This document shows, piece after piece, positions 14,138 to 15,973 of a stretch of DNA of 64,000 nucleotides (position 1 is the stretch's first letter; each line of letters begins with the position of its first letter). The DNA is from Candidatus Levyibacteriota bacterium (lineage in GTDB: Bacteria > Patescibacteriota > Microgenomatia > Levybacterales > UBA12049): positions 203,485 to 267,484 of the forward strand of contig JACROF010000012.1 of NCBI GenBank assembly GCA_016214555.1, read 5' to 3'. The notes beneath the pieces were generated by a model. The model did not search any database. It was not told the DNA's origin and saw only the letters and a program-made list of their open reading frames with translations. The translations under genes and the position numbers were made by a program.

Positions 14138-14240
14138 TGCATCAGCATCTTGAAATTATTTCATGGATCTCAAATTGGTAACTCTAGAATTGATAGTGGT
14201 CAGAATCGCGGTGGAAAAAATTGAGTTTTGAATGTCCGGC

Positions 14241-14268
14241 TCCCTGTAAGGGGGAGCCGGATCTTTGC
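14241..14268 (-). terminator. GC-rich hairpin (CCGGCTCCC-TGTAA-GGGGGAGCCGG) downstream of the LPXTG gene
   Basis: 11-bp GC stem immediately after the minus-strand stop at 14270. A T-tract follows on the minus strand only after ~15 nt, so termination is plausible but not canonical. Confidence 0.35.
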
Positions 14269-14269
14269 C

Positions 14270-14947
14270 TCAGGTCGTGCGATGGCTGTACCGGATGGTA
14301 CAACCAATGCAGCTGAGTGCAGTTGCAATCATGGCCACGAAGGCCAAAGCATTGTCGTGTTGAATGGTTCCGGACCCTGTGTTGGGCAAGATCATGACGT
14401 CCGTGGTCGACTCGCTTCCGTTGCCGGTGATGATGACTTCGGAGTCGCCAGTGTCTTCATCGCTGAAGACCTGGCAGATTTCGGTATCCAGACCCGAAGA
14501 ATCGGGCTTAATCAGAATTTCGCCCTCGGCGCAGTTCCCATACTCGTCCGGCAAGCGGTAGTACTCCTGCCACAGAGAGCATTCGTAGCCGTCCAACCAG
14601 CTAGGGCAATACCCACGTGGGCCTTCGCGCCAGGGCTGGTGACCACCCGTTGAGGGCTCATCATCGTAGACGCAAGCTTCGTACGTATAGTCGAAGCTGG
14701 TATTTGGCGGGCACTCGAAGAGGTAGCCATATTCAACCACCCCCTCAACTCCTGCTACAAAACAACCCGTATACCCATCGACGAACTCATCTGCGGGAAC
14801 CTCCCACAGGATGCCGTCAACAATATCGCAGGCCGATACCAATGGTGGGTAAAAAAGTCCTTCTTGGGCTTGCACCCACGAAATACCGGCCAGGCCGGTT
14901 GTCACGAGAAGTGCGACCAAAAAAACCACCAAGCGTAGACAACGCAT
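14270..14947 (-). CDS. Secreted Cys-rich cell-wall-anchored protein with C-terminal LPXTG (LPNTG) sortase sorting signal; compositionally GC-rich, probably horizontally acquired
   Basis: Start at the internal Met (MRCLRLVVFLVALLVTTGLAGISWVQAQ, a clear signal peptide) is preceded by GGGAGG. The C-terminus has LPNTGS, a hydrophobic stretch (ALAFVAMIATALSCIGC) and a basic tail (RYSHR): a classic sortase signal. The region is markedly GC-rich against an AT-rich background, so all six frames are open there. Confidence 0.65.
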   Translation of the reverse strand: MRCLRLVVFLVALLVTTGLAGISWVQAQEGLFYPPLVSACDIVDGILWEVPADEFVDGYTGCFVAGVEGVVEYGYLFECPPNTSFDYTYEACVYDDEPSTGGHQPWREGPRGYCPSWLDGYECSLWQEYYRLPDEYGNCAEGEILIKPDSSGLDTEICQVFSDEDTGDSEVIITGNGSESTTDVMILPNTGSGTIQHDNALAFVAMIATALSCIGCTIRYSHRTT

Positions 14948-15183
14948 GATATAACCTCCCGAACCGAGGATCAAAAACGGAACACCCGTCCATTCACCAC
15001 GGTTCTCTGAAGCTAAAACTACTTATCTTCAAAAAACCGTGGAGAAAGCCATCTTTTAAAAGATCACGTATATATTTGCAGAAAATGGCCACAAAATCAA
15101 CGCTATAGGCCAATATTTGGAAGAGTTCTGGAATAACTAAAAATTGTATTTTAGCTTCCTTTACGTTAAAATATGAGTCTTAA

Positions 15184-15252
15184 GGCCCCATCGTTCCCGA
15201 TGATCGATGTCATCGGGATCCCGACGGAGTATCGTCGGGGCTAGTGGTTTAG
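15184..15252 (+). pseudogene. Partial duplicate of tRNA-Glu 5' end (first ~23 nt) interrupted by a 46-nt insert carrying two GC-rich hairpins
   Basis: GGCCCCATCGT (15184-15194) and CTAGTGGTTTAG (15241-15252) match tRNA-Glu positions 1-11 and 12-23. Between them lie CCCGATGA-tcgatg-TCATCGGG and CCCGACGG-agtat-CGTCGGG hairpins. Sits immediately upstream of the GIY-YIG ORF. Confidence 0.55.
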
Positions 15253-15256
15253 TAAA

Positions 15257-15514
15257 ATGAGTTTTATGACTTACATTTTACAAAGTGATAAGGATGGAAG
15301 TTATTATATTGGCAGTACCGATAATCTTCAGAAAAGATTAACGGCACATAATAAAGGGTATTCAAAGTACACAAAAAATAAAATTCCTTGGAATATTGTA
15401 TATAAAGAGGAATATGAGACGCTCTCTGGAGCAAGAAAAAGAGAATATTATCTAAAGTCTCTTAAGAGTAAAATTGCAATTTTAAAATTGATCAAACAAG
15501 GCCCCATCGTCTAG
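15257..15514 (+). CDS. GIY-YIG nuclease-domain protein (small URI-domain, COG2827-like), stop codon embedded in tRNA-Glu
   Basis: TYILQSDKDGSYYIGSTDNLQKRLTAHNKG...WNIVYKEEYETLSGARKREYYLKSLK contains the GIY-x10-YIG motifs plus the conserved Arg, His, Glu and Asn/Lys positions. The last 5 codons plus the TAG stop lie inside the first 14 nt of tRNA-Glu. Confidence 0.8.
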   Translation: MSFMTYILQSDKDGSYYIGSTDNLQKRLTAHNKGYSKYTKNKIPWNIVYKEEYETLSGARKREYYLKSLKSKIAILKLIKQGPIV

Positions 15515-15571
15515 TGGTTAGGACACTGGATTCTCATTCCAGTAACCGGGATTCGACTTCCCGTGGGGTCA
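15500..15571 (+). tRNA. tRNA-Glu (anticodon CUC)
   Basis: Acceptor GGCCCCA/TGGGGTC, D-arm GTC-TAGTGGTTAG-GAC, anticodon stem CTGGA/TCCAG with loop TTCTCAT (U33, CUC, A37), T-arm CGGGA-TTCGACT-TCCCG, discriminator A. No encoded CCA. Confidence 0.8.
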
Positions 15572-15973
15572 CTGAGTAACAATTATTTTTTGAACTCTCT
15601 TCTTGATCATATCGCGTATAACGCGAAAATTTTCGATACTACCATCGAAGGGATCTTTTACATTCCAGTAAGTAACTTTTGTGCTTCGCATTACAAATTC
15701 TGGGATCTTTTCTTCAGGACACAGAACATAAATTTGATCTGCATCATCAACCATTTCTTTGGTAACTGTCTTTACTTTCTTATGTGAAACATCAATTCCT
15801 TCCTCCTTCATAACAGTAATGACTGCAGGAATAGGATGACCATATTTAGCTGGGGTGAAATCTAAAACTCCAGCACTTGTCGCATTTGATGCATGTGTAA
15901 AAAAATTATAGTATGCTTCTGCCATCTGACTTCTAGCTACATTTCCAGCACAAATAAATAATAACTTCTTCAT
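15569..15973 (-). CDS. Low-molecular-weight protein-tyrosine phosphatase / ArsC-like (LMW-PTP family)
   Basis: MKKLLFICAGNVARSQMAEA is the CX5R(S/T) P-loop of LMW-PTPs; a DP motif (VKDPFDG) lies near the C-terminus. The Met giving the canonical N-terminus was chosen; the ORF track extends to 16003. Confidence 0.75.
   Translation of the reverse strand: MKKLLFICAGNVARSQMAEAYYNFFTHASNATSAGVLDFTPAKYGHPIPAVITVMKEEGIDVSHKKVKTVTKEMVDDADQIYVLCPEEKIPEFVMRSTKVTYWNVKDPFDGSIENFRVIRDMIKKRVQKIIVTQ

Follow-up and report, generated by a model that had tools for sequence, protein, structure and literature searches.

Free-standing genes for GIY-YIG endonucleases occur in the T-even phages, where, according to two papers (PMC2330249, PMC2988022), the Seg genes undergo intronless homing and SegB is located in the tRNA gene cluster of T4. 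Here we analysed a 64-kb stretch of a Candidatus Levybacteria genome (the window, meaning all of its 64,000 nucleotides), in which a small GIY-YIG open reading frame (ORF) lies between a hairpin-interrupted 5′ fragment of tRNA-Glu and the intact tRNA-Glu(CTC) gene. We think that this is probably a miniature selfish element of the homing type, which invaded tRNA-Glu(CTC) between nucleotides (nt) 11 and 12. Comparison with related loci gives good support to a mobile insertion that is polymorphic among relatives, replaces tRNA alleles, decays and belongs to a larger class with many tRNA targets; the roles of the nuclease and of the hairpins are what we infer from it. As with the Seg genes, a GIY-YIG gene lies outside introns and at or in conserved genes, and presence/absence variation and ORF degeneration are seen, with co-conversion of flanking DNA as a possible further parallel; SegB, too, acts in a tRNA gene region. 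Seg proteins are longer than 200 aa, have a DNA-binding domain and are encoded between genes, whereas here a bare domain of 85 aa is encoded inside a chromosomal bacterial tRNA gene, which is always split at the same nucleotide and comes with a replacement tRNA (or its 5′ part), a covarying double hairpin at the junction and a stop codon donated by the tRNA.

Several other systems are comparable in part. In Allomyces atp6, a mobile mitochondrial endonuclease ORF reportedly brings along part of its target gene and leaves the resident part behind as a pseudogene. The locus resembles such fungal ORFs in that part of an essential gene is replaced and the displaced resident part is left behind, but the fungal cases are organellar and concern protein-coding targets. 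Phages, integrative and conjugative elements and genomic islands that enter tRNA genes by means of tyrosine integrases bring along a copy of the gene's 3′ part, by which the gene is restored. Shared with them are the tRNA target, the carried tRNA segment, the partial direct tRNA repeat and, in the comparison locus L036, stacked remnants. The differences are that the GIY-YIG ORF is alone in the 316-nt segment, with no integrase or other recombinase, that the junction lies in the 5′ D stem and the repeat (nt 1–11, nt 12–23) in the 5′ part instead of the usual 3′ part, that hairpins stand at the junctions and that the whole tRNA is replaced in fresh insertions. SLX1, YhbQ of E. coli and YazA of B. 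subtilis are the closest matches in sequence and fold, with the GIY-YIG catalytic residues conserved. SLX1 has a zinc-finger domain and needs SLX4, and for YhbQ and YazA we know of no tRNA link or mobility; the cassette clade, in contrast, is almost always fused to a tRNA gene. GC-rich double-hairpin elements (DHEs) of mitochondria appear to be mobile (PMC10085805) and are, like the module described here, GC-rich and built of two hairpins, a likeness by description alone. DHEs are dispersed, mostly intergenic with a few in rRNA genes, and not bound to one junction or nuclease gene, whereas here one copy is present per locus, always at the tRNA junction. The rRNA genes of the candidate phyla radiation (CPR) contain insertions that belong neither to the group I nor to the group II introns, and GIY-YIG proteins are encoded by some of them (Tsurumaki et al. 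2024, PMC11270868); the organisms, the structural RNA gene as target and the GIY-YIG proteins agree, but the split-and-replace layout and the hairpin module are not described there. To the IS200/IS605 elements and their RNA/DNA-guided relatives there is a resemblance alone, in the subterminal hairpins as recognition handles, the short target-defining flanks and the very small size; they differ in that here no TnpA-, TnpB- or IscB-like protein is present, the fold is GIY-YIG and a whole gene family would be targeted via gene-derived arms. None of these systems unites a bare SLX1-type domain, a fixed tRNA split, a replacement tRNA, junction hairpins and a tRNA-donated stop. An earlier note on this DNA was aware of no element with such an architecture, and none was found in a full-text literature search for tRNA-linked GIY-YIG cassettes in bacteria, with subscription journals outside its coverage.

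The order of the elements at the locus is, from 5′ to 3′, promoter, tRNA nt 1–11, double hairpin, tRNA nt 12 to about 23, ORF and intact tRNA-Glu. The earlier note had described a duplication of the tRNA-Glu 5′ end 316 nt upstream, interrupted at nt 11/12 by a 46-nt double hairpin, and an ORF ending inside the genuine tRNA-Glu; both descriptions are accurate and each element was found exactly where it had been placed. The remaining piece of the resident gene, the stump, comprises the acceptor 5′ strand, nt 8–9 and the first half of the D stem. It is followed by the GC-rich insert (46 nt in total, 15195–15240), whose hairpin 1 has the stem strands TCCCGATGA and TCATCGGGA, and between the D-arm piece and the ORF start are 4 nt (TAAA). 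The final four codons of the ORF (GPIV) and its TAG stop coincide with tRNA-Glu nt 1–15, the stop being nt 13–15. The two copies of the tRNA 5′ sequence lie 316 nt apart, and the 316-nt segment holds the hairpins, the D-arm piece, the ORF and a new copy of tRNA nt 1–11; at least the 5′ 11 nt of the intact tRNA-Glu(CTC) belong to the inserted segment. Its 3′ end abuts a convergent gene for a low-molecular-weight (LMW) phosphatase, with an overlap of 4 nt.

Table. Features of the tRNA-Glu(CTC) locus, with positions in the window.
Feature	Position	Strand	Basis or remark
TAAAAT, −10-like box of the resident tRNA-Glu promoter (putative)	15167..15172	+	11 nt 5′ of the stump
Stump of the resident tRNA-Glu, nt 1–11, GGCCCCATCGT	15184..15194	+	identical to tRNA nt 1–11
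Hairpin 1 of the junction module, TCCCGATGAT cgat GTCATCGGGA	15195..15218	+	fold; compensatory changes across 28 modules
Hairpin 2 of the junction module, T CCCGACG gagtat CGTCGGG G	15219..15240	+	fold, alignment, covariation
Cassette-borne D-arm piece, CTAGTGGTTTAG	15241..15252	+	equals tRNA nt 12–23 plus one extra T
GIY-YIG nuclease ORF, 85 aa, SLX1/YhbQ/UPF0213 type	15257..15514	+	Pfam PF01541, PDB matches, AF2 model
Intact tRNA-Glu(CTC)	15500..15572	+	ARAGORN; Rfam tRNA, 60 bits; acceptor stem 7/7 paired
316-nt segment, extra compared with the empty site	15195..15510	+	comparison with L059–L062 and L057

In a simple sigma-70 promoter scan the TAAAAT box was not called and no −35 match was found, so its function as a promoter is putative. 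A terminator scan called none at the locus, and the double hairpin can be ruled out as an intrinsic terminator since it has no T run. No further copy of the hairpin insert is present in the window, which was searched with the 46-mer, the central 12-mer and an unfiltered covariance model. The only other tRNA of the window, tRNA-Gln(CTG) at 142–213 on the − strand, has no GIY-YIG ORF nearby, and a profile search of the window in six frames yielded one GIY-YIG ORF in total.

By chance, 0.15 copies of the 11-mer and 0.64 copies of the 12-mer are expected in 64 kb, so that each repeat alone is only weakly improbable. Chance is excluded because the same co-linear layout, split at nt 11/12 by a double hairpin of 40–51 nt, is present in 28 modules from other assemblies. 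Altogether, the layout was found in more than 40 independent CPR assemblies (Microgenomates and relatives); the comparison loci, designated by L-numbers, are all metagenome-assembled genomes or metagenome contigs, those of L035, L047–L050 and L071–L074 coming, for example, from the Hainich and Rifle groundwater sets. A protein-similarity scan with one genome per species resulted in 32 loci. Some tRNA is located within 250 nt of the ORF in 31 of them, and in 21 it is a tRNA-Glu (CTC or TTC) that begins 12 nt before the ORF end; 17 of these 21 have the leader consisting of nt 1–11, the double hairpin and nt 12 to the twenties. The consensus leader starts with a (TG)GTA(A/T)AAT box, followed after 7–25 nt by tRNA nt 1–11, hairpin 1 (TCCCGA..TCGGGA), a T, hairpin 2 (CCCGA..TCGGGR), tRNA nt 12 to about 19–30, a few bases and the ATG. 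The acceptor stems of the ORF-adjacent tRNAs vary, their 3′ strands are compensated and 23 of 24 are paired at 7/7 positions, which shows that these tRNAs are real genes. A scan of metagenomes with a DNA pattern of the double hairpin returned 15 modules in 14 contigs, all in a tRNA-Glu/GIY-YIG context; the pattern included the tRNA flanks, so that copies elsewhere would escape it. With the same pattern, no module was detected in viral contigs (IMG/VR), and the relatives encoded by phages and plasmids are distant YazA-like proteins alone (38–47% identical). Contigs with the title "uncultured Gammaproteobacteria/Pseudomonadales" (L001, L003, L007, L012, L013, L017, L028) contain cassettes, promoters and tRNAs of the CPR type and nearly match Levybacteria loci: L012 equals the metagenome locus L044, and promoter and leader of L001 resemble those of L005. 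The taxonomy of these records looks unreliable.

Empty sites, which the earlier note had suggested looking for, were found in related genomes, also for the window's own phosphatase/tRNA junction. This junction recurs in L059–L062 (phosphatase 74% identical), where the tRNA-Glu(CTC) directly follows AAGGTAAAATatgcgttagtaat and the next gene lies 63 nt upstream. The nearest relative found, L057 (phosphatase 80%, tRNA ~93% identical), is empty on the 5′ side, too. The stump of the window thus sits where the tRNA begins in the empty sites, and the 316 nt from 15195 to 15510 are extra. A second site, shared among Microgenomates, consists of an mscS-like gene followed by tRNA-Glu(TTC), with flanking proteins that are 84–100% identical across loci. 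It is empty in L047/49/50 and L055/56 (43–46 nt with a TATAAT box, then the tRNA), decayed in L051/53/54, where a remnant of 29 codons is left of the ORF, and in L036, and full in L035, L002, L005/L046 and L042. The promoter box of empty sites is located 9–16 nt before tRNA nt 1 (L059, L047, L055, L001), and in L001 an empty tRNA-Glu(CTC) lies 900 nt away from an occupied one. The ORF is deleted or truncated in L045 (43 nt left), L028, L051/53/54, L029, L002 and L040; decayed loci keep the tRNA and, except for L029, also the stump. Such degeneration fits the cycle of invasion, degeneration and loss as in homing endonuclease genes. To the earlier note, the locus looked like the trace of a mobile element that targets tRNA and encodes a GIY-YIG protein, and this is supported by the site polymorphism, by foreign alleles, by displaced 3′ parts of the tRNA and by the decay of the ORF. 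Between the window's flanks and the comparison loci the sole synteny match is the Lon protease, in L018 and L038 and in a different arrangement. The neighbourhood of the phosphatase gene in P0245 has no tRNA-Glu, and identical proteins listed from differing neighbourhoods (P0119, P0097) turned out to have the same flanks, giving no direct proof of a very recent jump.

The displaced 3′ parts show what happens to the resident gene. Behind the ORF-adjacent tRNA of L035, L013, L015, L036 and L071/72/74 there is a short spacer, after which come GTTCGT, the double hairpin and tRNA nt 12–76. In L035, the 5′ part reads promoter, GCCGCGTTCGT, hairpins, CTAGTGG.., ORF and a first tRNA (GCCCCCA..), and the 3′ part reads aac, GTTCGT, identical hairpins and CTAGTGG..ACGGGGTACCA. 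This fresh insertion is flanked by direct repeats of ~61 nt (GTTCGT, hairpins, CTAGTGG), and its stump pairs with the displaced 3′ strand at 6/7 positions and with the first tRNA at 4/7. The stump of L036, GCCGCCATTGT, likewise pairs with the displaced 3′ part and not with the tRNA beside the ORF remnant. Like the outermost displaced piece, whose last 22 nt are GTTCGAATCCCCTTGGCGGTAC, it agrees with the resident allele known from the empty sites. The functional tRNA beside the ORF remnant is of a different allele, and nt 6–76 of a third allele lie in between, as if several invasions had been stacked one after another. The stump differs from the adjacent tRNA in 9 of 24 loci, and most of the nine equal the acceptor allele of another real tRNA-Glu (GCCGCCA, GCCGCGT, GGCTCCA; also L067); the stump of L010 is a decayed copy that is still paired at 7/7, the other eight pair at 4–5/7. 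L073 and L071/72/74 have identical protein and flanks, without and with the displaced copy, respectively, which shows that recombination between the new tRNA and the displaced copy deleted the latter and left one chimeric tRNA. The occupied tRNA of L001, with an acceptor stem paired at 5/7 and foreign last 9 nt, looks like an unlucky chimera. Foreign alleles beside the ORF and the chimeric L001 tRNA fit co-conversion; other recombination routes give the same result. Altogether, the loci are consistent with a resident gene that was split at nt 11/12, its first 11 nt staying with the promoter and its remainder being displaced, and with a new tRNA arriving together with the ORF. The earlier note had spoken of a target-site-like duplication. 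The repeat exists, but it is not a classical target-site duplication, since the upstream 11 nt are the resident stump, and hairpin and D-arm piece travel with the cassette.

The protein matches the Pfam family GIY-YIG (PF01541) with E=2.8e-15 and 56.8 bits (cut-off 22.6), residues 4–72 aligning with positions 3–74 of the 78 in the model. Residues Y17, R27, H31 and E63 are invariant among 25 sequences, and Y6 and N32 are conserved in at least 90%; their catalytic roles we take to be those known for I-TevI and UvrC. The best sequence matches in the PDB are 1zg2 (UPF0213, E=1.3e-13) and 1ywl (E=3.7e-12), followed by SLX1 (E=1e-4) and I-TevI (E=0.009). A Foldseek search likewise put 1zg2 first, then SLX1 chains (probability 1.0, TM 0.6–0.7), with I-TevI weaker. 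The AF2 model has a pLDDT of 89 and a single domain; domain match and model span essentially all 85 aa, leaving no DNA-binding domain, and the NCBIfam group I intron endonuclease model scores 19.8 bits, below its cut-off of 56. Judged from these matches, the protein is a bare catalytic domain of the SLX1/YhbQ/UPF0213 type without the DNA-binding module of homing endonucleases. The GIY-YIG domain on which the earlier note built its comparison with homing endonucleases is thus present; a classical homing endonuclease with a DNA-binding domain it is not. SLX1, YhbQ and YazA have been treated as one family of structure-selective nucleases (PMC7017083). PADLOC gave weak partial matches at most (E=4e-4 over 33 residues) and PHROGs no match. 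Among adjacent ORFs the median dN/dS is 0.16 at a dS of at least 0.86, indicating purifying selection. The C-terminus [GA]x[IFVL]V, which is the translated tRNA-Glu 5′ end, is found in 98 of the 120 best homologues, and most of 24 homologues with 60–77% identity end in GPIV, AAFV, GAIV or AAIV; the C-terminus tracks the tRNA that it overlaps.

The fold of the 46-nt insert has two hairpins (−31.6 kcal/mol, z=−2.9). When 28 distinct modules were aligned, 91% of the cells were paired in the two-hairpin structure, with 42 double-change cells compared with 14.6±3.8 in shuffles (0/500) and far lower values in all slid controls. An alternative pairing with an outer stem (5′ strand of hairpin 1 with 3′ strand of hairpin 2) and an inner stem (3′ strand of hairpin 1 with 5′ strand of hairpin 2) has no covariation support. 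The junction is at nt 11/12 in 28/28 modules. There is (nearly) no variation in the hairpin bases and in the flanks TCGT and CTAG(N)GG, the latter being retained in the D-arm piece of nearly all modules, while the adjacent ORFs have reached the dS given above, so that protein, hairpins and the short tRNA-like arm are all kept by selection. In other loci the D-arm piece reaches to nt 25–30. The hairpin in the fragment had been noted before as an interruption; it is there, but as an integral, covarying part of the element and not as a secondary insertion. The note had also raised, as an objection, that the match might be part of a longer conserved leader. It is, but that leader belongs to the mobile unit. 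The central junction of the two hairpins, TCGGGATCCCGA, is a 12-bp palindrome that is confined to these modules in window and loci. In L007 and L011 (2935–2950) it is replaced by TCGAGGATCCTCGA, a perfect palindrome of 14 bp, an inserted A in the 3′ strand of hairpin 1 being matched by a T in the 5′ strand of hairpin 2, with one bulge per hairpin; this hints that the duplex palindrome or an alternative pairing also matters. The leaders of L005/L046, L010 (2940–3000) and L051 (3205–3290) contain an extra hairpin module, such as CCGATGGATTTATCCATCGAGCATTCGCGATTAAATCGGAA, in the D loop at about nt 19/20, behind CTAG(N)GGTG. Modules can thus build up in a leader at several fixed positions. A decayed leader on the − strand of L036 (740–790), GCCGCCATTGT-GTAGTGGTGTTGATGATA, has no hairpin at nt 11/12, with two modules remaining downstream, and represents either a precise hairpin loss or an older hairpin-less junction. 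The junction bases of tRNA-Glu(CTC) are TCGTTCAG in L057 (4640–4684, empty on the 5′ side) and TCGTCCAG in L010 (3234–3250, occupied, with the ORF stop lost and the C-terminus extended), which may be variants of the putative cut site.

The cassettes are not restricted to tRNA-Glu. In Bacteroidota, Chloroflexota and other CPR bacteria, homologues with 40–50% identity are encoded immediately next to tRNA-Val, His, Asp, Tyr, Pro and Gly, on one side or the other. In 10/10 loci (Val, His, Asp, Tyr, Pro, Gly, Lys) a partial tRNA copy is present on the far side of the ORF, a match that is reached in 0–1 of 300 shuffles; these copies are interrupted by a hairpin or have the anticodon arm or T arm swapped for a hairpin of similar length, and the hairpins are mostly (T)CCCG..CGGG(A). 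The fixed junctions differ between ORF subfamilies (nt 11/12, D loop 19/20, nt 23 and 3′-side types), and GIY-YIG ORFs on both sides of a tRNA or tandem cassettes are present in L034, L019, L025, L006 and L031. In L034 (560–1250, − strand) a single tRNA-Glu contains a tandem of two different cassettes, in the order leader and ORF1, tRNA nt 1–23 with the single hairpin GGTCGAAGTTTCGACC, a divergent GIY-YIG ORF2 and the tRNA. A neighbouring tRNA-Lys(TTT) with a cassette of its own was seen in L036 (1530–1922, + strand), L048 (2035–2357), L049 and L050: a promoter is followed by tRNA-Lys nt 1–23 of another allele and the hairpin TCAGGCTAAGCCTGA, and then by a piece of the anticodon loop, a GIY-YIG ORF and an intact tRNA-Lys that overlaps the ORF end. 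A second GIY-YIG family is located 3′ of tRNA-Glu (L057 4272–4611 on the − strand, L029 3184–3514, L041, L043) and is introduced by the conserved motif TTCGGCAAGCTCAGTGCAAGC right behind the tRNA. In L057 this ORF is followed by a hairpin and GTGGGGTCAC, a copy of the tRNA 3′ acceptor strand, which results in a mirror-image architecture.

A course of events that would account for these forms is the following. The nuclease would break or nick an unoccupied tRNA-Glu at or near nt 11/12 (TCGT|CTAG), and the break would be repaired from an occupied copy, possibly circular, with homology provided by the tRNA and by the tRNA-derived arms on either side of the hairpins. The cassette would thereby bring the double hairpin, the D-arm piece (nt 12 to about 23), the nuclease gene and a new tRNA 5′ part or, as fresh insertions elsewhere suggest, a whole foreign tRNA-Glu behind the ORF. 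The primary product, as seen in other loci, would be promoter, resident nt 1–11, hairpins, nt 12–2x, ORF, new tRNA, spacer, nt 6–11, hairpins and resident nt 12–76; this layout is expected from double-strand-break repair with crossover if the template is circular or tandem and carries nt 6–11, hairpins and nt 12–2x. Recombination between the new tRNA and the displaced copy would then remove the latter and lead to the compact form seen in the window. The cell would keep a working tRNA-Glu, and the resident promoter would now drive the nuclease gene as well. As a probable side effect, RNase P cleavage at tRNA nt 1 would strip the last four codons and the stop from the ORF, resulting in a non-stop mRNA, so that full-length nuclease would be made from the unprocessed precursor alone. 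Since the hairpin base (T)CCCG(A)...(T)CGGG(R) is common to most tRNA specificities and the protein is shared, the hairpins are likely to be the handle for a structure-selective nuclease and the tRNA arms the address. The hairpins may also, or instead, break up homology and target site in the stump.

Several points weigh against such a homing-type invasion. That the 85-aa protein cuts DNA we infer from its sequence, and recognition of a specific tRNA gene is hard to picture for a bare catalytic domain without a DNA-binding module. The intact tRNA beside the ORF retains TCGT|CTAG, which poses a problem of self-cleavage (immunity). Allele-specific immunity, with a sensitive stump and a resistant own tRNA, was considered, and the allele pairs follow no consistent pattern. 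The homology arms around the hairpins are short (6–11 and 7–15 nt), and no circular or episomal form was seen in viral contigs, phages or plasmids. The empty orthologues of the window's site have no more than 74–80% identity to it in the flanking protein. The window itself has no displaced 3′ part and its tRNA is the lineage-typical allele, so that the history of its copy has to be read from its relatives. Comparison assemblies of the kind used here can also misplace repeats, though the same layouts recur in independent projects.

The lack of a DNA-binding domain could be overcome by structure-guided targeting, an extension that is possible but doubtful. A strand of the cassette, as DNA or transcript, with a tRNA arm, hairpin 1, hairpin 2 and a second tRNA arm in this order, would pair with the complementary strand of an uninterrupted tRNA gene. 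The two duplex arms and the two hairpins would then mimic a four-way junction with the target as the continuous strand, and single-hairpin relatives would form three-way junctions. The SLX1-type domain would recognise the junction together with the CCCG/CGGG hairpin base and nick the target at nt 11/12, the tRNA-derived arms being an exchangeable address and the hairpins the handle. If true, this would account for the use of a nuclease of 85 aa, which lacks a DNA-binding domain, by elements specific to tRNA-Glu, Val, His, Asp, Tyr, Pro, Gly and Lys, and it would be a new principle of a minimal programmable nuclease.

In a first alternative, the cassette is mobile but host recombination inserts and excises it and the GIY-YIG protein is cargo that does not pick the target. 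Foreign DNA could, for instance, be taken up and recombine at the tRNA with the help of homology, or a circle could be integrated in the Campbell manner via the hairpin repeat. The nuclease would, for example, resolve the hairpin or cruciform in replication, and replacement of an essential tRNA would make loss of the cassette costly (addiction). The direct repeats of L035 are what a single crossover with a circle should leave, the deletion distinguishing L073 from L071 occurred between repeats, and it also agrees with this explanation that the protein lacks a DNA-binding domain, that the intact tRNA keeps the presumed target and that the resident copy is left disrupted with the sole working tRNA being element-borne. 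However, the fixed junctions, at nt 11/12 in every module and at other set positions in other ORF subfamilies, favour a defined cut over random crossovers. Purifying selection acts on the ORF, which disappears as elements decay, like homing endonuclease genes, and the circle was not observed. We consider this alternative unlikely.

A second alternative is that the leader is a vertically inherited, cis-regulatory device that benefits the host by coupling a repair nuclease to the transcription or maturation of tRNA-Glu, without mobility. Conservation of the leader, covariation of its hairpins and occupation of the mscS-adjacent site in several orders agree with this. The stop codon lies within the tRNA, so that translation would compete with processing by RNase P. 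In the minimum free energy fold of the leader-ORF-tRNA transcript (15175–15575, + strand; z=−4.5), the ORF is enclosed by stump nt 1–8, which take the place of the tRNA's own 5′ end in pairing with the 3′ acceptor strand, and this predicted pairing could decide at the RNA level whether the ORF end is translated or the tRNA matures. This long-range pairing is not maintained, because 8 of 24 loci pair at 4–5/7 alone. Close relatives have empty sites with the promoter directly before the tRNA, many loci have a deleted or frameshifted ORF with the tRNA kept, and foreign tRNA alleles and stacked displaced 3′ parts are not explained by regulation. A host-beneficial leader without mobility is very unlikely. 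The regulatory or processing arrangement that the earlier note had also considered may hold as a side effect, given the stop in the tRNA and the stump pairing, but does not explain the presence/absence polymorphism.

The double hairpin might also be an independent palindromic mobile element, similar to DHEs, REP sequences or MITEs, that entered a decaying tRNA fragment and has nothing to do with the GIY-YIG gene. Fungal mitochondria do have GC-rich double hairpins that are apparently mobile (PMC10085805), and the extra D-loop modules of L005, L010 and L051 would be in line with insertion at further positions. Yet the window contains a single module, and in the loci it is confined to nt 11/12 of tRNA-Glu beside a GIY-YIG ORF or its remnant. 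Within 200 nt of the ORFs, CCCG-based hairpins show a 26-fold enrichment, and no solo copy was found in an intact gene or intergenic DNA, with a metagenome pattern that included tRNA flanks. This makes an unrelated hairpin element highly improbable. A functional split or intron-containing tRNA gene, from which the insert and possibly the ORF are removed in the RNA, can practically be dismissed: L015 does hold a full-length tRNA-Glu interrupted by hairpins alone and CPR rRNA genes do carry insertions, some encoding GIY-YIG proteins (PMC11270868), but an intact tRNA-Glu with the same anticodon always adjoins, the interrupted copies are mostly truncated (nt 1–2x or nt 6–76) and decaying with mismatched acceptor strands, and no intron ribozyme family matches. 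The Rfam scan of 14900–15700 with E up to 10 gave tRNA as the sole match and no ribozyme core, so that the leader represents no described RNA family. Introns of group I and of group II were rejected on the same scan, and the intact tRNA is present without splicing.

If the homing-type interpretation is correct, the cassette would be among the smallest self-contained mobile units of bacteria, with ~316 bp and one 85-aa protein, and would represent a new way of parasitising essential tRNA genes, in which the resident gene is split and the element's own copy substituted. It would explain why small genes annotated as "GIY-YIG nuclease family protein" crowd tRNA genes in CPR, Bacteroidota and Chloroflexota, and it would account for stray tRNA fragments, pseudo-tRNAs and the horizontal replacement of tRNA alleles. 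The bacterial YhbQ/YazA/UPF0213 branch of the SLX1 family would gain a concrete candidate substrate, namely a particular hairpin module that sits at one set nucleotide in a tRNA gene, and the possibility arises that a bare nuclease domain chooses its target guided by structure or homology. Gene callers and tRNA finders will mis-annotate such loci, since the ORF ends in a tRNA, stumps are passed over and the interrupted copy is taken for a second tRNA-Glu.

Upstream of the cassette lies a divergent gene (14270–14974, − strand) for a 234-aa protein with an N-terminal hydrophobic segment. The GC content of 14200–14950 is 52–58% compared with ~38% in the neighbourhood, and this GC-rich DNA directly upstream of the invaded tRNA promoter may have been horizontally acquired.

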